A stretch of DNA of 10,175 nucleotides from a virus, in the UHGV virus genome UHGV-0126067; one strand, 5' to 3'. The notes below the pieces were generated by a model, which was not told where the DNA came from, searched no databases, and saw only the letters and a program-made list of their open reading frames with translations. The translations under genes and the position numbers were made by a program. Shown piece after piece: positions 2,276 to 9,904 of the stretch (the stretch's first letter is position 1; each line of letters opens with the position of its first letter).

Positions 2276-4480
2276 TTACTGCTGTGGTTGTTGCTGAGTT
2301 GATTTTTGCAGGATGCTGCTGATGTCCATGCGCTGCGCATGGCCCTGTGCCTGACTTTTCAGGACAAGCTCTGCATCAGCACGGGCATTATCTCCTTGCT
2401 GTTGCTGGAACTGTCCGAGCAGTTTCAGCGCCTCACGGATATCAGATTTTTGCTGGCTATCGGCAGATGCGAGGATTTTCACAACATTTGCCGCAGCAAC
2501 CTGAGCATCCGTCTGTGCCTGGAATGCTTTAACCTGAATGGCTGCTTGTTCGTTCTGCGCTTTCTGCAATTCAGCCTGACCAGCAAGAAGCTGACCTTGC
2601 GCAGCAACCATAGCCGGATCTGGCTGACTGGCCTGTTGTTGTTTCGCCTGCTCAACCATCTGCTGTTCTTCTGGTGTTCTCGGCTTAATAACGCCAGACA
2701 GAAGCAACTGATTGCGGTTGTATTCTTTAAGGTCGTCCATCCCTTCGCCGTCCATATTGTCGAGAATCATCGACGATACAAGGTCATGCTTCGGCGTTCC
2801 TGGCGGGATAAGTGCCAGCATGGAAAGCAACGACTTAACCGTTGCATCACGGCGAGTAGCGAACGACTGACCGACATCGACAGTCACTTCATAGTTACCC
2901 TGCGAAAGGTCGTTAAGCGCGATAACCTTCCCTGTCTGACGGTCAACCACTTCACCAGTCATCAGCGCCACGTCATCGCTGCCATCCTCATTAACGATGC
3001 GCATTGGCGTATCGCTGCCATAGACTTCACGAGCCATAGAAAGCCACACGACGCCAGCACGGCGCATGGATTTAGCCATGTTGTCCATGTAGATATAGGA
3101 CTGCGTGTCCATCCGGTTAAAGATGCTATCAACGGTATCGGTAGCGACGTTGCTCGGCATGTTCTCAAGCTGCGACGCACCTGTAATTTGCTGAATAGCC
3201 GTTCCGGTGTACTGCAATAGCCCGGCAAGAGCAGGAGGCATTTGTGTCGGAGGTGTCCAGCCAGCAACCTGAGCCTCTGAAATGACCGTTCCGTTTTTGT
3301 CCTTCTTGCTGGTCATGGGAAGAACTGCAGGTCTTTTCTTATTCCTCTCTGCCCAGTGATTCATTAATGGACCGGGAATGAAATCAACATCCACGATAGG
3401 AATGCCATCACCGCCAGCCTGAGTAGCATTATCTGCAATCATGGAAACCATCAGGTTCTCAAGACGCTGTGCATCCATCGCTTTTGCTGCGTGGCCTTCG
3501 ATTCGCTCCTGATTATCAACAAATGAACGACGCCCATATACCGGGATGAGAGGAATATGTTCGCCCGGAATACGCTTCGGTTCTTCCAGCCATTCAGCGC
3601 CAGACAGAAGACCGCAATAAACTCGGCGTTTCTTCACCGTTCGCTCGCCAATCAGTTCGAATGCACCATCGGTCAGCTCGTCGACAATATCTTTGATTTG
3701 CTCTTCATCATAGATTGCCGTTTCTCCGCTGACAGGGTTACGCCATGCTGTGAGCTTCACCTTCTCTATGCGGACTTCGTAGTAGCGTCCAACATAGATG
3801 GCATCAGGCGTTGACCAGTCATATTGAGTACCAGTGTCATCACGAGAAAGACTTGCCGCGATGGAATCAGGGTATTCAGCCTCGAACGCTTTATGCGTCA
3901 TGGAGAACATTTCCATAGCCCACATAGCATCAGAGCGGTCATATTGCTTGCTGTCCTGATCGAAGAAAACGCATGTCGCTGGGTCGTAAACAGGAAGAAG
4001 GCTGATGCGTCGCTGCTCGTTACTCGGATCCATTTCATCTTCGTAATCGGCACACATGCGGAAACAACCGAATCCGCCCGTTACAGCATCATCAAATGCG
4101 TTATCACACGCTTCGCCACCGGATGTTTCCTGATAGTCAGCGCGGAATTTGCCGTTCATCTTTTCGGCTAACGCTTCCGATGCCTTATCGTCCTTAGGCC
4201 TGAATTTAACGCTGATGCGATTCTGTCGATACTCGCCAATGATGCGATCACATTCACGGGCAATCTTATTCAGTTCAAAGCGCGGGTAATGCTCAAACCT
4301 GCCTTCATCAAATGAGTAACCAGCGTTTGTGCTGCCTTCCCACTGTGCGCCGGACACCCGGACGAAACGTTGAGCCTCAATAATCTGCTCACGCATATCC
4401 TTCGTTGCTGACCAGGCATTATCAAAGTTGCACAGCACCTTGCGATGCCAGTCAGTCATCTTTCTATCATCAGCCATCAT
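2276..4480 (-). CDS. Portal protein (P22 gp1-like) with long helical C-terminal extension
   Basis: About 734 aa. Contains segments characteristic of P22-type portals as I recall them (GEHIPLIPVYG, KPRTPEEQQ, DPAMVAAQGQLLAGQAELQKAQNEQ) and a Q/A-rich C-terminus. The ORF track starts at a TTG (4492); I prefer ATG 4480, which overlaps the terminase TGA stop (ATGA). Confidence 0.93.
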   Translation of the reverse strand: MMADDRKMTDWHRKVLCNFDNAWSATKDMREQIIEAQRFVRVSGAQWEGSTNAGYSFDEGRFEHYPRFELNKIARECDRIIGEYRQNRISVKFRPKDDKASEALAEKMNGKFRADYQETSGGEACDNAFDDAVTGGFGCFRMCADYEDEMDPSNEQRRISLLPVYDPATCVFFDQDSKQYDRSDAMWAMEMFSMTHKAFEAEYPDSIAASLSRDDTGTQYDWSTPDAIYVGRYYEVRIEKVKLTAWRNPVSGETAIYDEEQIKDIVDELTDGAFELIGERTVKKRRVYCGLLSGAEWLEEPKRIPGEHIPLIPVYGRRSFVDNQERIEGHAAKAMDAQRLENLMVSMIADNATQAGGDGIPIVDVDFIPGPLMNHWAERNKKRPAVLPMTSKKDKNGTVISEAQVAGWTPPTQMPPALAGLLQYTGTAIQQITGASQLENMPSNVATDTVDSIFNRMDTQSYIYMDNMAKSMRRAGVVWLSMAREVYGSDTPMRIVNEDGSDDVALMTGEVVDRQTGKVIALNDLSQGNYEVTVDVGQSFATRRDATVKSLLSMLALIPPGTPKHDLVSSMILDNMDGEGMDDLKEYNRNQLLLSGVIKPRTPEEQQMVEQAKQQQASQPDPAMVAAQGQLLAGQAELQKAQNEQAAIQVKAFQAQTDAQVAAANVVKILASADSQQKSDIREALKLLGQFQQQQGDNARADAELVLKSQAQGHAQRMDISSILQKSTQQQPQQ

Positions 4481-5973
4481 CCAACTCCGCAAGGTATGTT
4501 GTAGCTTGAGTAATCAATCTCTTTAGGATCTTTGATGTCTCGCATCTGTATTGCAAAACGCCTCATCATGTAGCCATAGCGAACAGCAGAAAGGATGTCG
4601 TCATTTAGCTTGACGATCTTCCCGTTCTCATCGCGGTGATACAGACGAAACTCTTCAAAGAATGGCTCGCAGGTGTTAAATACCTTGAAACGACCGTCGA
4701 GCATCATGTCGCGTATCTCTGCTATCCCGGGTTCGACCGCATTACCTCCATCAGGCCATGTTGCATGATCTGGCAACATGTCGAACCCAGCTTCGGCGTA
4801 TTGTTCCTTGAGCTGAGCGCCGCCTCCCTTTTCGTGCTGATGCCCGTCATGAGGCCAAGCCGTAGGGGTGTTTTTGCTCCATGCTTTAACAGCACTCCAT
4901 GCCTCTGTCGCCTTCTTCTGTTTGGCCTTCCAGACGCGAGAAAGATAAATCACGTCCTCGTCTTTATCCCACCAAAGCTGGATATGTGCCTGTGGGTGAT
5001 CCCATCCGAAGTCCATTGCATTGATGACGTAGAAGTGATCAGGACACTCGAACGGCTGACACTTAATCGTCTCTTCCGGTATCTGGAAGATTCGACCGCT
5101 ACCCATCGTAGGAATACCGCGAGCACGCGCCTCTCTCTCGTGCTCGGGATAGGATGCGATGATTTGCTCTTTCTGCTCGTCGGTATAGTGCTCAGCATCA
5201 TAGATGGTCATGTTGACCACTTTCTGCGACTTGCTGGGATTCTTCAGGAACTTGGTAACAACGTCAGACATCCCCATCAGCGGGGTAAACGTCAGAATTG
5301 AGAATTGCCCGTATTTGTTGGTACGGGTAAGACCTTCGCCATAAATGCTGTATGGTGGCTCTTCGTCAAACCACACGCCGTGGATTGTGTCACCCTGCCA
5401 GCGAGCACGGCCTTGAGAGTATGGTTTGAAGTAGCAGATTGAAATGCCATCTTCAACGCCATCAGCCGTGTGATGCTTAACCAGAAGATGATCAACAAGG
5501 TTCGGAAAGAAAGGAGACTTCTTCCAGCTAATGATGTCCTCTTTCGGTATGGAACCGTAGCCAGGCTCGTCATTCTCTTCGATACGACCGCACAGGATGC
5601 GTTGAGTCGTTTTGGTTACAGTCTCGTTTGTCTCGCCACCAATCCAAAAGACAACAGGCTCATAGAAACGCTTACCTTTCCACTCACCGCCATATTTACC
5701 ATCAGCAGGATAGCCTTTTGTGCCCGGATAACGCCCTGTAAGGTGAAACGCGACTTCAGCAGCACCAGTAAATGACTTACCAAGCTGGTTACCAGCCATA
5801 AAACATCGCTCTGGATAGTCATGTCCGGCGTCGATGAACTCACGCTGTTTGCTGTATGGCGTAAATTCATATAGCAGGTGTGTGTTCCGGTAGTTCTCTT
5901 CTTCTTCGAGTAGCTCGAGCAATTCGATTTGCTCTTCGTCGCTCAGGTTATCAAGAATCGCGTCCAGTTCCAC
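4477..5973 (-). CDS. terL: Terminase large subunit (P22 gp2-like)
   Basis: 498 aa with a Walker A-like motif AGNQLGKS near the N-terminus. Sits between small terminase and portal. The start is GTG at 5973 (no in-frame ATG before the Walker A) with AAGGAG about 10 nt upstream. Overlaps the 3' end of terS by 23 nt. Confidence 0.93.
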
Positions 5974-6439
5974 GGTTGAATAGCTCCTTGATACGAGAGC
6001 GCCGCTTATCGCGATCTCCCTTATCAGGTGTCACGTCTTCAACTTGCGACTGCTCTTTGAGGCCCAAATCACGGGCGATGATGTTAGCGTTGAGAAGGTC
6101 AGCGGCTGCGCCAGAGAATTTCTGATCGTAGATGATGTCTTCCGCTCGTGATGTGACGTCAGAAAAACCTTCCATTGACCGGAAGGTTCCCCATGTTTGC
6201 CTGGTGATATCAAGGAAGGTACACAATCCTGAAATAGTCATGGCTCGCATCTTAGGGACATTAGCCTTAATTATTTCTCCCTGATATGAAAATACCTTGC
6301 CCTCCCATAGCGGGTTATCATCAGCCCACTCGAAGTATTCACAACAAGCAGCCCACAGCGCCTCAGGCGATTCGAATTTAGGGTTTCGCCCATGACTACT
6401 GCGGGCCTCCCAAAATCGGTTGCCCTTTGGTGCTGCCAT
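5951..6439 (-). CDS. terS: Terminase small subunit (P22 gp3-like)
   Basis: 162 aa from ATG 6439. The N-terminus [38 protein letters not shown] and C-terminus ...[13 protein letters not shown] match my recollection of P22 gp3. ATG 6439 is preferred over ATG 6445 because the GAG of the RBS abuts the upstream ATG. Confidence 0.88.
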
Positions 6440-6474
6440 ATCCATCTCACTTATTTGTTATTTCAGGTTGAGCA

Positions 6475-6717
6475 TCATGCTCCGGTGGTGAACAGGTCTA
6501 ACGCTTCCTTCGATTTACGTACCGCTTCGATAGTGCGGGTCGTGATATCTGAATTAGCGCCGCCTGACTGGAAGTGAATTTTGAATAGCTCAAGCTTCAA
6601 CTCGTCAGTACCAATGAACTGAAATGCTTCCTCTGCGGCTGCGTTCTGGTTCATGACCAGTTTGTAAATCTCTAACTGGAATTTCTGTTCTTCAGTCATG
6701 GGAATAATCTCTGCCAT
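6475..6717 (-). CDS. Small hypothetical protein (80 aa), possibly the P22 orf80 position
   Basis: 80-aa ORF immediately upstream of terS on the same strand, with GGAG 6 nt upstream of ATG 6717. No recognisable motif; function unknown. Confidence 0.6.
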   Translation of the reverse strand: MAEIIPMTEEQKFQLEIYKLVMNQNAAAEEAFQFIGTDELKLELFKIHFQSGGANSDITTRTIEAVRKSKEALDLFTTGA

Positions 6718-6820
6718 TGTTGGCTCCGTTTATCCGTTAAAAGGGATATCAGTTAAGTTATCCCGTGTAGGGTATAAGCCATTATCAAAGCCACTCTGTA
6801 GGGAATGGCTTTTGTAATAA

Positions 6821-7078
6821 CTACTTCGTTTTTGCTTCCGCTCTTTTACGGCGGCGCTCTTCTTTCTTCTCGGCGTTTGCCATGTCCATGAATGCCTGCA
6901 TGATCGAGTTCCTCATCATGTAACTGACAAAGTGATGATTGACGCAGCCGTTGAGACGGAGTTGCTCGCCAAACTGATCAACCGAGGCCAGCACTTGCAT
7001 CATGTCCTTCTCGCCTTTCATGAACTCTGAGAAGTCGCGCCCTGCTCTGGAGGCGCATTCGATTACGCGATTACTCAT
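6821..7078 (-). CDS. Hypothetical 85-aa protein with basic C-terminal tail, translationally coupled to the upstream KilA-N ORF
   Basis: ATG 7078-7076 overlaps the TGA stop of the KilA-N ORF (ATGA). C-terminus is EKKEERRRKRAEAKTK. No family recognised. Confidence 0.5.
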   Translation of the reverse strand: MSNRVIECASRAGRDFSEFMKGEKDMMQVLASVDQFGEQLRLNGCVNHHFVSYMMRNSIMQAFMDMANAEKKEERRRKRAEAKTK

Positions 7079-7572
7079 CCCGGCAGCCCTGGGATCGTAA
7101 TCTGCAGCTGGTTAGCAAGGGTGTTAATCTCAGCGACCAATACAGGCTTCGTATAACGCCATGCAGCAAGTCCTTGTCCGCAGAAGCTCGCCATGTCCTT
7201 CTTCTGGTCAAACTCATGGCACTTCATGTTGAGCTGCGCACTTAAGCTGTTGCGATGCTGAAGCTCTCCGGTGAAGTAGTCATCGAGGACCTTATAGGCT
7301 GCGTACTTGAACCCGGGGTTTAGCCATGCCGCATAATCGTATGCAACAAACTTCCCGCCATAGGTTCCGCCGTGTACGCCGCGGGCAGTGAAAACCACAG
7401 ATTCGTGGTTTTTCTCCAGCTCGGCCAGGAACTCTTTGGTCTGCTTGTTTCGCAGATAATGGTAAGGCGATTCAGCATCACTTTTGCCACTGGCTTTCCA
7501 CATATCGGTGAGGCAGATCATGCCGTCTTCCCCGACACGGATTGGTTGATTGAAGAGGGTTAATGATTTCAT
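7075..7572 (-). CDS. KilA-N domain protein (165 aa)
   Basis: From ATG 7572 the N-terminus MKSLTLFNQPIRVGEDGMICLTDMWKASGK... fits the KilA-N pattern found in phage antirepressor/Bro-type proteins. AAGG lies about 11 nt upstream. The ORF-track start at 7626 is a TTG with no better support. Confidence 0.7.
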   Translation of the reverse strand: MKSLTLFNQPIRVGEDGMICLTDMWKASGKSDAESPYHYLRNKQTKEFLAELEKNHESVVFTARGVHGGTYGGKFVAYDYAAWLNPGFKYAAYKVLDDYFTGELQHRNSLSAQLNMKCHEFDQKKDMASFCGQGLAAWRYTKPVLVAEINTLANQLQITIPGLPG

Positions 7573-7719
7573 TTCGCTGATACCTTTTGGTGGTTGAGCC
7601 TGTTCTCGTAGATACGGGCAGCCCAAGAGCGGTCAGCGTTACCACTGCCCTATCTCAAGCTCTACCCCGAAAGGCTCTTGGTTGATATGCGCACGAGAAT
7701 GCGCGGGTTTACTGCGGGC

Positions 7720-7745
7720 ATAAAAAAGCCCCGCTATTGCGAGGC
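7720..7745 (-). terminator. Rho-independent terminator-like hairpin overlapping the Rz1 stop codon
   Basis: Minus strand reads GCCTCGC-AATA-GCGGGGC (7-bp stem with one G.U) followed by TTTTTTAT. Confidence 0.5.
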
Positions 7746-8057
7746 TCGTGATGATTCGATTTTCCTGATTGCCGCCTTATCCAGATTGCACTGCCCTAGC
7801 GCCGTATAGAGCTGAGCGTTCAACTCCAGACTTGCCTGCCACGTGAACGGAACCGCCATTCCGGGGATCGGCGTGTCTGCTGTCAGGTCAGCGCTTATCG
7901 GCACCACTGGGGATGGAACGTAAACTGTCTGCGTATTCCCGCAAGCTGTCAGCAGCGGCAGAAGGAACAAGCTGGTTAGCACACGGATCGCCTTCAAGCG
8001 CCTGCCTGATGTAGACAATGCGCGTCTCGCCTTTTTTGGCCAGTTCGTTCTTTGCAT
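7734..8057 (-). CDS. Rz1: Rz1-like o-spanin lipoprotein, overlapping the 3' half of Rz in another frame and extending past its stop
   Basis: Lipobox LLTAC-G preceded by a hydrophobic stretch (VLTSLFLLPLL). The mature part is proline-rich (VYVPSPVVPISADLTADTPIPGMAVP) and has no Asp at +2. Start is uncertain: ATG 8057 gives a long n-region; an internal TTG at 7997, preceded by AGGCAGG, gives a textbook signal peptide MKAIRVLTSLFLLPLLTAC. Confidence 0.65.
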   Translation of the reverse strand: MQRTNWPKKARRALSTSGRRLKAIRVLTSLFLLPLLTACGNTQTVYVPSPVVPISADLTADTPIPGMAVPFTWQASLELNAQLYTALGQCNLDKAAIRKIESSRASQ

Positions 8058-8274
8058 TCTGGGTAGCCTGTGAGATGTCGCGGATGAGGTTCATCGTGGT
8101 GATCACGTTTCTGGTGATCGCCTCCGATGTGTCTGCCCTGACCGTCGCCTTATCGCGCTGGTCTTTGTAGGTGATGGCGTTGTCGCGGTAGTGGTTTACG
8201 AATAAAACCAGCACGCCGATTAACGCCAGCACCAGCAACTGTAGCCAGTAACGCTTAACCAGCGCGCCAATCAC
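7888..8274 (-). CDS. Rz: Rz-like i-spanin (128 aa) with N-terminal transmembrane segment
   Basis: N-terminal TMD (WLQLLVLALIGVLVLFV) followed by VNHYRDNAITYKDQRDK, which closely matches my recollection of lambda Rz (VNHYRDNAITYKAQRDK). GTG start at 8274 overlaps the endolysin TGA stop (GTGA). Confidence 0.8.
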   Translation of the reverse strand: MIGALVKRYWLQLLVLALIGVLVLFVNHYRDNAITYKDQRDKATVRADTSEAITRNVITTMNLIRDISQATQNAKNELAKKGETRIVYIRQALEGDPCANQLVPSAAADSLREYADSLRSIPSGADKR

Positions 8275-8711
8275 GACAGGAACAGAGCGCGCTCCGCCTC
8301 ACGCCGACGGGTCAGCCCATTCAGGACCTTGCCACCTGCTTTATTCCAGCGCAGGAACTCATCGGCTGCGCCAGCGTAATCACCGGCGTTGAGTTTTCGC
8401 AGGAGAGTCGATGTCGATAAAGATCGGGCTCCGAGGTTATAGGTGAACGACACCAGGGCGTCGAATTGCCCCTGAGTCAGACCAACTTTAACCAGGCGAG
8501 ACACGTCGCTTTCGTAGCTGACAAGTCCGGTCTTCAACAGGCGCTCTGCCGTTTCCTGATTAATTGTCATACCGGCACGGATCGGTTTACCGTCGACAGG
8601 CTGAGTCCAGCCATAGCCAATCGTCCACACTCCGACGCTGTCCTGGTACGCGGTAAGCTTGCAGCCTTCGAACTCTTTGATCAGGGCAATGCCTTTATCA
8701 CTGGTTTGCAT
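8271..8711 (-). CDS. Endolysin, T4-lysozyme-type muramidase (P22 gp19-like)
   Basis: 146 aa. Catalytic E/D/T spacing of T4-type lysozymes (EFEGCKLTAYQDSVGVWTIGYG). C-terminus RRREAERALFLS resembles the P22 gp19 C-terminus as I recall it. Follows the holin with a 14-nt overlap. Confidence 0.9.
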   Translation of the reverse strand: MQTSDKGIALIKEFEGCKLTAYQDSVGVWTIGYGWTQPVDGKPIRAGMTINQETAERLLKTGLVSYESDVSRLVKVGLTQGQFDALVSFTYNLGARSLSTSTLLRKLNAGDYAGAADEFLRWNKAGGKVLNGLTRRREAERALFLS

Positions 8712-9015
8712 TCTTCATCCCCGTCAGACGTTCCCAGAAATAGGTCAGAGCCACGGAGCCCATCGCCCCGCTAATGCCTGACGTAACCAGAATCATGTAA
8801 AGGCTCAGCCCACTTTCAACGCTGATCAGTCCACCAATGAGACCGGTAAAGCCGGACACTGCAATTTGTGCCAGCGCATTAATCCAGCTCCAGGTGGCTT
8901 TGTTCTGCTTAACGTCAATAAGGTATCGGACCAGGCCGCCCCAGCATGACAGAGCAAGGACAATCAGCCATGACACTCCGGCAATGCTTTCTTTATCTTG
9001 CATACGTTTAGCCAT
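8698..9015 (-). CDS. Holin, class I (three predicted TMDs), possible dual-start holin/antiholin
   Basis: 105 aa with three hydrophobic segments (SIAGVSWLIVLALSCWGGLV; WSWINALAQIAVSGFTGLIGGLI; LSLYMILVTSGISGAMGSVALTYF) and a charged C-terminal tail. N-terminus is M-A-K-R-M. Strong SD GGAGGTGA sits immediately upstream of ATG 9015. First gene of the lysis cassette. Confidence 0.8.
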   Translation of the reverse strand: MAKRMQDKESIAGVSWLIVLALSCWGGLVRYLIDVKQNKATWSWINALAQIAVSGFTGLIGGLISVESGLSLYMILVTSGISGAMGSVALTYFWERLTGMKNANQ

Positions 9016-9137: not shown

Positions 9138-9734
9138 TTAATTTTGGCAGCGTGGTTGGCTCACTTTGAGAGACTCGATCTTCTTGATAAGCCCTCTGTG
9201 GAGCTGTGGATGCAACTGATCGCAGAGACTCTTATAGCCATGCGCAAGACTCATTTTTTCATTGAACCAAGCGAGATGGGCAAGGTATGGGTCTTCGAAC
9301 ATACCTAAATGCTTGTTCTTACCATTAACCTTTATATCGGCCTGAAATTTTGTTGAGCCTTTTTTTAGGCAAACGCCAATGGGATAATCACCCCTCCGAG
9401 CACCCCTTGAGGTAACAAAGCTATTGAGCGCCTGCGGGATAAAGATGCATGTTTTACTGGAATAAACTTTGTTACCGGGGAAAAGGAGATCCTTATCAAG
9501 CTCACACCCAGGAATGTATTTCGCGTCGTAAAACTTTTTAAATTCGCTAAAAAGATGCCACTCTTCATCAACAACACATCCTTCATAGCTAGGCCTGTAA
9601 CAGACCCCCTCCCCATAACATCTCTTAAGCATCCCATGCCAAACTCTATATGCTCTTATTTTCTTCCCATCCACAAAAACAGGATGCACATCTAACTTTC
9701 CAACTCCGAAAATAAGACTTTCATTTGATTTCAT
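9138..9734 (-). CDS. Accessory (moron-type) protein, 198 aa, with AP2-like C-terminal signature; function unknown
   Basis: ATG at 9734 (MKSNESLIFGVGKLDVHPVF...) with AAAGG upstream; the ORF-track start at 9821 is a TTG inside an inverted repeat. GC is visibly lower than in flanking genes. C-terminal segment GVCLKKGSTKFQADIKVNGKNKHLGMFEDPYLAHLAWF fits an AP2-type pattern. N-terminal domain is Cys/Trp-rich (WHGMLKRCY...CVVDEEWHLFSEF) and unassigned. Confidence 0.65.
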   Translation of the reverse strand: MKSNESLIFGVGKLDVHPVFVDGKKIRAYRVWHGMLKRCYGEGVCYRPSYEGCVVDEEWHLFSEFKKFYDAKYIPGCELDKDLLFPGNKVYSSKTCIFIPQALNSFVTSRGARRGDYPIGVCLKKGSTKFQADIKVNGKNKHLGMFEDPYLAHLAWFNEKMSLAHGYKSLCDQLHPQLHRGLIKKIESLKVSQPRCQN

Positions 9735-9750
9735 GGTTGCGTTTACCTTT

Positions 9751-9837
9751 CTTTGAAATGAACCTTTGCCGCAATGGAAATCAGCCCGTCGAGGCTCGCC
9801 AGCACTAACTGACTTCCTCAAAGGCTCATTTCAAAGG
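9751..9837. repeat. 18-19 bp inverted repeat (arms 9751-9768 and 9819-9837) in the leader of the accessory ORF
   Basis: Plus-strand arm ctttgaaatgaacctttg against the reverse complement of caaaggctcatttcaaagg: one DNA mismatch, which is a G.U pair in the minus-strand RNA. A 50-nt spacer holds a small inner hairpin (AGCC-TCGACG-GGCT). Confidence 0.75.
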
Positions 9838-9877
9838 GTGTGGTTCGACGTGGTTAGAGGCGCATTGCGGTGCGCTG

Positions 9878-9904
9878 AAATAAAAAAGCCAGCGACAGGC
9901 TGGC
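9878..9904 (-). terminator. Rho-independent terminator
   Basis: Minus strand reads GCCAGC-CTGTC-GCTGGC (perfect 6-bp stem, 5-nt loop) followed by TTTTTTATTT. Confidence 0.7.

Follow-up and report, generated by a model that had tools for sequence, protein, structure and literature searches.

The stretch of DNA analyzed here (the window, 10,175 nucleotides (nt) of the virus genome UHGV-0126067) is the late region of a P22/HK620-like temperate phage, and every gene in it lies on the minus strand, as do all features described below. We focused on a pair of genes and on the non-coding elements around it. The first gene (7075-7572) starts with the ATG at 7572, encodes a protein of 165 amino acids (aa) with a KilA-N and an ORF11CD3 domain, and is the orthologue of hkbK of phage HK620. 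The second (6821-7078) encodes a protein of 85 aa and is the orthologue of HK620 hkbL (phrog_875). At 7075-7078 the plus strand has tcat and thus the minus strand ATGA, in which the TGA stop of the first gene and the ATG start of the second overlap by 4 nt. This overlap had been claimed in an earlier note on the window, and was borne out when read directly from the sequence. Ahead of the pair lies a structured leader that contains a Shine-Dalgarno sequence, and a stem-loop directly follows the stop of the second gene. Genes and boundary elements together appear to form a cassette of the late operon.

The 165-aa protein matched the Pfam KilA-N profile (PF04383) with 56.2 bits against a cut-off of 23.8 (residues 10-101, positions 9-106 of 107 of the profile), in agreement with the domain assignment of the earlier note. 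As an addition to that note, a second domain was recognized: residues 109-161 cover the ORF11CD3 profile (PF10549) from position 1 to 54 of 54 with 50.5 bits (cut-off 25). This C-terminal domain is 35% identical to the ORF11CD3 domain of the Rha protein of phage CUS-3. The 165-aa protein also matches phrog_129, annotated as 'transcriptional regulator', and is 94.5% identical to the HK620 hkbK product (tblastn). Judged by its domains, it appears to be a member of the Bro/KilA-N/Rha network, in which phage DNA-binding regulators and antirepressor-like proteins shuffle their domains, and it is membership in this network that would suggest an antirepressor role of the Bro/Ant/Rha kind. A 183-aa version of the open reading frame (ORF), started at a TTG, was rejected as an artefact, because its extension falls within the non-coding leader. 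A search of PDB sequences gave no match for either protein of the pair, and NCBIfam gave no useful one. The sole match of the 165-aa protein in PADLOC-DB 2.0 was local and weak, between residues 60-90 of the KilA-N region and the candidate PDC-S22 (E = 2e-8); none of the BstA models was matched.

The 85-aa protein matched phrog_875 end to end (1-85 of 85, E = 8.5e-51). With this match, its length and the conserved ECASRAGRDFSEF and GCVNHHF motifs it is a member of the hkbL-like (PHROG 875) family, and the basic tail described earlier is indeed present, the protein ending in EKKEERRRKRAEAKTK. It is about 92% identical to the HK620 hkbL product, an identical protein is encoded on one IMG/VR contig (L013), and no match was found in Pfam, NCBIfam or PADLOC. 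A search of 5.8 billion proteins returned 132 clusters, nearly all of 83-92 aa with a common N-terminus and a conserved Met start. The family is small, with 21 representatives at 50% identity among 1.84 billion proteins. The AlphaFold2 model (predicted local distance difference test score, pLDDT, 92.8) has helices at residues 3-20, 26-42 and 48-84, the third being long and extending into the basic tail; the protein is thus predicted to be a three-helix domain with a basic C-terminal tail. Residues C8, C45, H48 and H49 are near-invariant in the close family. A zinc site was nevertheless dropped, as C8 and the His pair are not jointly kept in distant homologues, which read I..GCVNSI (epsilon34 gp68) and A..GCKEHH (P0131) at these sites.

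In the most distant members of the family, P0131 and P0133, the domain is fused N-terminally to a T5orf172/MUG113 (GIY-YIG-like) module, and the P0131 gene adjoins a KilA-N+P63C gene. Likewise, the first 60 residues of epsilon34 gp68 align to the profile of the 85-aa family (hhalign 94.9%, E = 4.6e-8). Since the hkbL-like domain occurs as a free protein whose gene is coupled to a KilA-N gene and, elsewhere, as part of a fusion with a nuclease-like module, it would itself belong to the Bro/KilA-N/Rha/T5orf172 domain-shuffling network. For the 85-aa protein, these associations suggest a role as partner, adaptor, modulator or nucleic-acid-binding protein tied to KilA-N. The A/G-rich stretch that encodes the tail (6821-6870) appears prone to frameshift or recombination. 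Variants at this stretch were seen in P0049, P0054, P0058, P0061, P0090 and P0091; several of them switch frame and gain unrelated tails, and one enters an Rz fragment.

How tightly the two genes are linked was seen from their relatives. The small gene was found in 56 phage records and in 313 stretches of IMG/VR. An ORF with a KilA-N N-terminus lies directly upstream of it in 92 of 92 loci examined; both ORFs are intact and separate in 88 of these, and the upstream ORF is decayed in the other four. The overlap of 4 nt is present in all 69 loci with a 165-aa KilA-N+ORF11CD3 protein (type A), whereas a spacer of +1 or +2 nt was found in the 19 loci of type B, in which the first gene encodes a KilA-N+P63C protein of 242-284 aa (HK97 gp73, HK022, mEp phages, Klebsiella prophages). 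Judged by conserved geometry (stop and start overlapping or no more than a few nt apart, with both genes in one orientation), the genes would count as coupled in both types. The constancy of the overlap in type A and the KilA-N gene directly upstream in every locus argue against a chance arrangement. The KilA-N proteins of the two types are only 25% identical to each other, and the small protein stays 88-92% identical between them.

An independent sample, drawn via the leader and not via either protein, gave the same picture. Here the small gene was found at -4 after 37 of 42 KilA-N cargos, and after none of 30 Rha-like, 14 HNH-like and seven other KilA/Bro-like cargos. The small gene therefore looks like a dedicated companion of KilA-N genes, whatever their C-terminal domain. 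Of the two alternatives raised in the earlier note, a co-translated pair or a single broken gene, these comparative data (conserved geometry, small gene only after KilA-N genes) support the former. Searching with the KilA-N protein returned 55 clusters, all with the KilA-N + ORF11CD3 architecture or fragments of it. The longer entries of the 85-aa family are upstream TTG mis-starts, frameshifts in the A/G-rich tail region or one single-contig fusion, and among the 132 and 55 homologous clusters from the 5.8 billion proteins searched there was no genuine fusion of both proteins.

The pair is already known from HK620, Stx (Shiga toxin)-converting phages, HK97, HK022, mEp phages and Klebsiella phages. 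The HK620 genes (NP_112071/NP_112072) and the pairs of Stx phages share with the window the ATGA overlap and the slot between Rz and hkbM (DUF2560)/terS, and there is no structural difference between the HK620 pair and ours. The products of these genes are annotated only as 'KilA-N domain-containing protein' (hkbK) and 'hypothetical protein' (hkbL), and our literature search found no functional study of hkbK/hkbL or of the Stx-phage equivalents, nor a description of what the pair does. In HK97 (gp73 and HK97p61), HK022, mEp and Klebsiella phages, the small gene is alike (88-92% identity in the HK97 group, about 66% in Klebsiella), directly follows the KilA-N gene and has the same terminator and leader ahead of it; these pairs differ by P63C in place of ORF11CD3 and by the spacer in place of the overlap. 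DNA of the cassette matches 1826 of 5426 complete E. coli genomes, with at least 80% query coverage in 346 of them. Unlike in the window, the cassette sits among tail genes in Klebsiella and Salmonella phages; the position of the pair among Klebsiella tail genes indicates that the two genes move jointly.

The 190 nt between Rz1 and the ATG of the KilA-N gene are conserved where the downstream proteins diverge (HK620, HK97, HK022, Klebsiella and Erwinia phages). Indels that disrupt the reading frame mark this region as non-coding, and its fold is unusually stable (z = -3.7). Read in the 5' to 3' direction, it is made up of a terminator hairpin and its U-tract, of H1, which is a small GC hairpin, and of a core of about 100 nt. 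H1 (7689-7704, GCGCA-TTCTCG-TGCGC) was seen both with RNAalifold and in the minimum free energy (MFE) fold; four of its pairs are kept by RNAalifold in all 23 sequences of a naive MAFFT alignment, with a single compensatory change and a single G-U. The core (7583-7681), identified by covariation, fold and a covariance model (CM) match, has a long coaxial stem made of P0, P2 and P3, a one-sided loop of 6-7 nt (J6) and a small apical hairpin (P4). Its strands follow each other in the order P1a (7681-7675), P0a (7674-7663), P2a (7662-7656), P3a (7655-7645), P4 (7643-7631), P1b (7629-7623), P3b (7621-7610), J6 (7609-7603), P2b (7602-7596) and P0b (7594-7583). P1b, a strand of the apical loop, pairs with P1a just 5' of the stem and thereby forms a pseudoknot. 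P0b contains the Shine-Dalgarno sequence AAAGG, 10 nt before the ATG, which is paired with the anti-Shine-Dalgarno strand P0a. The MFE of the core is -42.5 kcal/mol (z = -3.1), and the CM matched this leader with 48.3 bits (E = 4e-11).

Covariation supports this structure. The naive MAFFT alignment (A3) with RNAalifold already yielded H1, P0 and P2, with 17 of 24 pairs compensated. It was set aside because MAFFT mis-registers P1 and P3, and a structural alignment (A4) was built instead, for which 23 distinct leaders were segmented by hand, each checked against its source sequence, and aligned as N-padded rows. In A4, 95.5% of the cells are paired, and 22 of 37 pairs show compensatory double changes, including six of the seven in the pseudoknot. 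The pairs of P0 are kept in 94% of the cells, five of seven being compensatory. The covariation score of A4 was 0.52, compared to 0.18 for shuffled alignments (none of 500 reached the observed value) and at most 0.095 for slid ones, and sliding the partners by a single column lowered pairing from 95% to about 50%. In an Infernal alignment of the matches of the model (A5), 95.4% of the cells were paired and 20 of 30 pairs were compensatory.

At least ten different compensated versions of P1 were found, and many of P2, P3, P4 and P0; new loci added further P1 variants, such as CTCAGAA/TTCTGAG and CCACAGAG/CTCTGTGG. The Shine-Dalgarno sequence is always one strand of P0, a helix with a recurrent C-A mismatch and G-U pairs, and the asymmetric loop J6 and a GAG junction are conserved. 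The G-U pairs of the leader fit the coding strand only, and CM scores on the reverse strand were far lower (21 vs. 65 bits), as expected for an RNA of coding sense. Covariation thus points to a structured cis-regulatory 5' leader RNA that includes the ribosome-binding site, and such a leader would damp translation of the first gene, keeping it low or conditional. A scan of the whole window with cmscan against Rfam 15, whose families include the known riboswitches, c4 antisense RNA and ribozymes, gave (at E <= 1) no match to the leader and only a chance snoRNA match elsewhere, and no description of the leader was found in a literature search. The likeness of CGCTCTT in P1b to the boxA of lambda was dismissed as a coincidence, because this segment shows covariation with P1a and is not the same in other types of leader.

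Both ends of the cassette are marked by conserved hairpins. At the 5' boundary, a terminator-like hairpin (GAGCCTCGC-AATA-GCGGGGCTT) with a U-tract occupies 7720-7747; the terminator scan reported hairpin and T-run at 7747-7726, overlapping the end of Rz1 including its stop. A hairpin with a U-run is found at the same place in all related loci, with differing compensated stems (AGCCTGAC..GTCGGGCT, AGCCCACG..CGTGGGCT). The terminator predicted just upstream of the pair in the earlier note was thus confirmed; it belongs to the cassette, as its first element, and does not mark where the lysis genes end. At the 3' boundary, a stem-loop (6778-6822) directly follows the stop of the 85-aa gene (-20.6 kcal/mol, z = -4.9). 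Its outer stem is UUAUUA/UAAUGG here and CCAUUA/UAAUGG in most relatives, and its variable inner stem, AAAGCCA/UGGCUUU in the window, is compensated across loci (AAGCCCATC/GGTGGGCTT, AAGCTCTTC/GAGGGGCTT, AAGCGTCC/GGGCGCTT). The element ends in GATAATG, immediately after which the sequences diverge. Besides the small gene, some Rha and KilA-like cargos in the slot after Rz are followed by this element. The hairpin that the earlier note had placed downstream of the pair therefore exists as a stable stem-loop at about 6822-6778, but, lacking a U-tract, it is not a typical intrinsic terminator.

A consensus scan for sigma-70 promoters on the coding strand between 6300 and 8100 found none, although atypical promoters could escape such a scan, and reading by eye for sigma-70, LexA-box and integration host factor (IHF) consensus sites in and upstream of the leader gave nothing convincing. 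The suggestion that the pair is an independently regulated module holds insofar as the cassette has conserved 5' and 3' boundary elements, but not with regard to a sigma-70 promoter of its own on the coding strand. The regulation visible in the sequence appears to be the structured leader that sequesters the Shine-Dalgarno sequence, a feature absent from the earlier note. The boundaries are kept at different positions in the genome: after Rz, in the tail-gene region and upstream of holin.

The leader is not confined to KilA-N genes. Using the covariance model and BLAST, we found it ahead of other cargos as well: the rha gene of phi80, whose leader is the HK620 hkbK-type sequence over the stretch read (L101 1800-1945), the Rha+ORF11CD3 gene of CUS-3, the T5orf172 gene of epsilon34 (gp68, 60.9-bit CM match), a Rha gene of the Erwinia phage Midgardsormr38, a KilA-N+P63C gene in the tail region of the Salmonella phage SPN3UB and many HNH-endonuclease-like ORFs. 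It is a feature of the cassette and not of KilA-N. With Rha, T5orf172 and HNH-like genes standing behind the same leader, its autoregulation by the KilA-N or the 85-aa protein was rejected as the general mechanism.

The window itself carries a second copy of terminator, H1 and leader at 9732-9904 (CM 37.8 bits, E = 5.5e-8; z of the fold -4.4), with the terminator at 9904-9888 followed by a U-tract, H1 at 9875-9860, the core at 9851-9746 and the ATG at 9734. This leader is a different variant, of a type also present in Stx-phage loci. Its cargo is an ORF of 198 aa (9138-9734) that has no Pfam match and matches phage HNH endonucleases in their C-terminal part only (phrog_953, E = 1e-70, profile 194-390 of 420). 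Located between the terminator of the late operon and holin, it may be a truncated or nuclease-less relative of homing endonucleases.

Several loci showed further arrangements of such cassettes. Tandem leader-plus-cargo cassettes, about 0.7-2.7 kb apart, occur on seven IMG/VR contigs (L108, L134, L155, L156, L160, L178, L199), where an HNH-like cargo often directly precedes the terminator and H1 of the next cassette. In a prophage of Scandinavium hiltneri (L008), the KilA-N+P63C gene has a full leader (2567-2669, 49.8 bits) at a distance of about 570 nt upstream of its start, and only the last 35 nt or so of a leader stand directly before the gene, an arrangement that suggests an insertion into, or recombination within, the leader. 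In Midgardsormr38 (L098 1955-2748), the Rha-family gene behind the same leader is followed by an ORF of 69 aa (phrog_4439) that overlaps it by 4 nt. This ORF was rejected as a member of the 85-aa family (hhalign 0.3%), and small coupled partners may thus have arisen repeatedly in these cassettes. Cassettes in tail regions (L099, Salmonella SPN3UB; L006, Klebsiella ST11-VIM1phi8.1; L097) lie beside a pair of Arc/Arc-like repressor genes and an Ant/Bro-N gene, an immI-like setting, indicating that KilA-N cassettes and antirepressor modules cluster there.

The explanation we favor, with a probability of roughly 60%, is that the window carries a conserved late-operon cargo cassette of enterobacterial temperate phages, with a leader-gated first gene and a coupled KilA-N partner gene. 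The cassette would be transcribed from the late promoter, solely as part of the Q-antiterminated late operon. Q-modified RNA polymerase would read through the cassette's own 5' terminator, and in a lysogen this terminator would insulate the cargo. In the transcript, the leader of about 125 nt is predicted to fold into the P0-P2-P3 stem, with the apical loop pseudoknotted (P1) to the 5' flank and the Shine-Dalgarno sequence hidden in P0, and translation of a dose-sensitive or toxic regulator would be held low or conditional. As the second gene starts inside the stop of the first (ATGA), it would probably be translated by terminating and re-initiating ribosomes, in a fixed ratio to the first protein. 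The small protein, which is found only after KilA-N genes and whose domain is fused elsewhere to a T5orf172 module, may on these grounds act with the KilA-N domain as a partner, adaptor or modulator. The leader could be a constant damper or a switch; as a switch, it might respond to the action of RNase III on its stem of about 27 bp, to temperature, to a ligand or to a host factor. The sole experimental lead on such a signal is the reported control of phi80 rha by host IHF, as summarized in PMC4936722.

Several observations weigh against this explanation. The Erwinia phage phiEt88 has a KilA-N+ORF11CD3 gene without the small gene, and in Actinobacillus pPE4 no small gene is annotated beside such a gene, so that the partnership is not obligate from the KilA-N side. 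Conversely, epsilon34 gp68 contains the homologous domain, yet the annotation of the stretch examined lists no KilA-N gene. The domain may thus function by itself, for example in nucleic-acid binding. That small genes beside divergent KilA-N genes are so highly identical could in part be due to recombination in a conserved slot. A Shine-Dalgarno-like AGGG lies 8 nt before the ATG of the 85-aa gene, which makes independent initiation possible. As to the leader, the hand-made alignment A4 was designed to match the structure, A5 was adapted to the model, and the counts are inflated by shared ancestry, as all leaders come from related enterobacterial phages.

Among the other explanations, the one that fares best concerns the leader, which might be a sensor (a riboswitch, an RNA thermometer or the site of a trans-acting protein or small RNA) that switches translation of the cargo instead of damping it constitutively. 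A pseudoknotted fold of the size of an aptamer with the Shine-Dalgarno sequence in its closing helix would suit a sensor, as would the conserved J6 and GAG junction and the mismatch and G-U pairs that recur in P0. That unrelated cargos share the leader argues against regulation by the cargo protein itself, and phi80 rha, which stands behind a HK620-type leader, is reported to be under the control of host IHF (summarized in PMC4936722). On the other hand, no ligand or factor can be inferred from the sequence, the diversity sampled is so narrow that invariance of the loops is weak evidence, and no alternative pairing for an ON state was identified. We regard a sensor as conceivable, though on balance improbable.

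A toxin/antidote-like or abortive-infection/defence module is unlikely. In such a module, a KilA-N protein with toxic activity (as in P1 KilA) or with a defensive one (as in BstA) would be neutralized by the small protein, or the small protein would confer self-immunity. KilA-N proteins do include the prophage defence protein BstA (PMC8585504), two small, tightly coupled genes would be in keeping with such a system, and heavy translational insulation would suit a toxic product; the short PADLOC match to PDC-S22 points in the same direction. However, as reported above, the small protein is without a match in PADLOC, Pfam and NCBIfam and no BstA model recognizes its neighbor. Expression from the prophage, which defence needs, is itself improbable for genes of a Q-dependent late operon with no promoter of their own. 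Moreover, cargos of the Rha, T5orf172 and HNH kinds occur in this slot and behind this leader with no partner, and in phiEt88 the KilA-N gene stands alone.

Less probable still is that the conserved flanks are boundary sequences at the DNA level, kept alike by homologous recombination during cassette exchange and without function as RNA. Cargos do vary between identical flanks (for example phi80 rha and HK620 hkbK, over the stretch of leader read), divergence outside the flanks is sharp, and records of lambdoid phages annotate features of this kind, such as 'bsq3' in CUS-3. A lack of RNA function is contradicted by the many compensated versions of P1, P2, P3, P4 and P0, by the loss of pairing upon a one-column slide, by G-U pairs on the coding strand only, by the strand asymmetry of the CM scores and by the constant place of the Shine-Dalgarno sequence in P0. 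We consider it very unlikely that the pair is a classical moron, an autonomously transcribed unit of lysogenic conversion like lambda bor, which lies in the same region. Its place in a variable slot between lysis and packaging genes, flanked by hairpins, would fit, but no promoter-like site was seen on the coding strand between terminator and ATG, the terminator is upstream instead of downstream, the downstream stem-loop has no U-tract, and the cargo domains are of phage regulator types and not host-fitness factors. The last three explanations thus each conflict with at least one tested feature.

Finally, one KilA-N gene with a C-terminal domain, broken by a frameshift, a nonsense mutation or a sequencing error, is practically ruled out: the ORFs do abut in different frames with a 4-nt overlap, and one cluster (P0057, 123 aa, single contig) joins part of ORF11CD3 to the small protein, but ORF11CD3 is matched to its last position (54 of 54), where the protein ends, the same geometry recurs in 69 independent type-A loci and in HK620 (genome published 2001), the 132 small-protein clusters have about 85 aa and a conserved Met start, homologues of both proteins stand alone, and the sole 289-aa entry among the 55 KilA-N clusters is frameshifted junk. 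The pair consists of two genes and not of a broken one.

The cassette has close relatives that differ in their cargo. The phi80 rha and P22 orf201-type genes (Phage_pRha with or without ORF11CD3) occupy the same slot after Rz/Rz1 behind the same terminator, H1 and leader; they differ in having an N-terminal Rha domain in place of KilA-N and no coupled small gene (0 of 30). The record of phi80 rha is annotated 'DNA synthesis inhibition in IHF- hosts'. Rha is reported to inhibit phage growth in IHF-deficient hosts (cited in PMC4936722); the reported IHF dependence could involve the leader RNA or a DNA element. The epsilon34 gp68 gene (phrog_4284) is found in the same slot of a P22-like phage behind the same leader. 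Its product is homologous to the 85-aa protein over the N-terminal 60 residues and differs in being a single polypeptide with a T5orf172/MUG113 GIY-YIG-like module. Structures in 5' untranslated regions that occlude the ribosome-binding site are known from other selfish or regulatory genes, as in the hairpin of T4 I-TevI, the leader of lambda N and, in the form of pseudoknotted translational operators, T4 gene 32 and E. coli rpsO. The leader resembles these in occlusion of the ribosome-binding site of a gene that may be harmful or sensitive to dose, and in the contribution of a pseudoknot. It differs from them in being common to many unrelated cargos, in always standing behind a terminator, in having no Rfam match and in having no known similarity to them in sequence or model.

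The remaining genes of the window are those of a P22/HK620-like late region. A strong, terminator-like hairpin with 12 pairs and a T-run (10155-10128) at the right-hand end of the window is at the position expected for tR', the late-operon terminator downstream of pR'. The 198-aa ORF is followed by the genes for holin (8698-9015), endolysin (8271-8711), Rz (7888-8274) and Rz1 (7734-8057). Downstream of the pair lie a gene for an 80-aa DUF2560 protein (6475-6717; hkbM of HK620, orf80-type of P22-like phages), terS (5951-6445), terL (4477-5973), portal (2276-4492) and scaffold (1289-2185). The earlier note had placed the pair in a variable slot between lysis and packaging genes; the slot is indeed variable, but the DUF2560 gene intervenes between the pair and terS. 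In relatives (HK620, epsilon34, CUS-3), the DUF2560 gene keeps its place whichever cargo occupies the slot.

The pair as such is ordinary, having been annotated since 2001 and being very common. New are the strict dependence of the small gene on KilA-N, its kinship with the N-terminal domain of T5orf172 proteins, and the shared pseudoknotted leader, of which the window holds two copies. It is a tentative possibility, which we would not call probable, that the leader represents an undescribed, widespread class of phage cis-regulatory RNA that gates KilA-N, Rha, P22_AR-like, T5orf172 and HNH cargos in the late operons of enterobacterial temperate phages and responds to a specific signal (a host factor such as IHF or RNase III, temperature or a small molecule), with the hkbL-like domain as a new, KilA-N-specific member of the network.

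KilA-N, Rha and Bro-type genes are among the commonest unexplained genes of temperate phages and prophages; DNA of this cassette matches one third of complete E. coli genomes, and the pair occurs in Shiga-toxin phages. With a companion gene, a nuclease-like fusion and a leader predicted to hide the ribosome-binding site, an anonymous pair of ORFs becomes a testable regulatory unit. Through the leader, the pair is also tied to phi80 rha, which alone in this guild has a phenotype linked to a host factor (IHF), and this tie gives experiments a direct point of entry. Should the leader prove to be a true switch, many mobile phage genes would be controlled by a new class of RNA.

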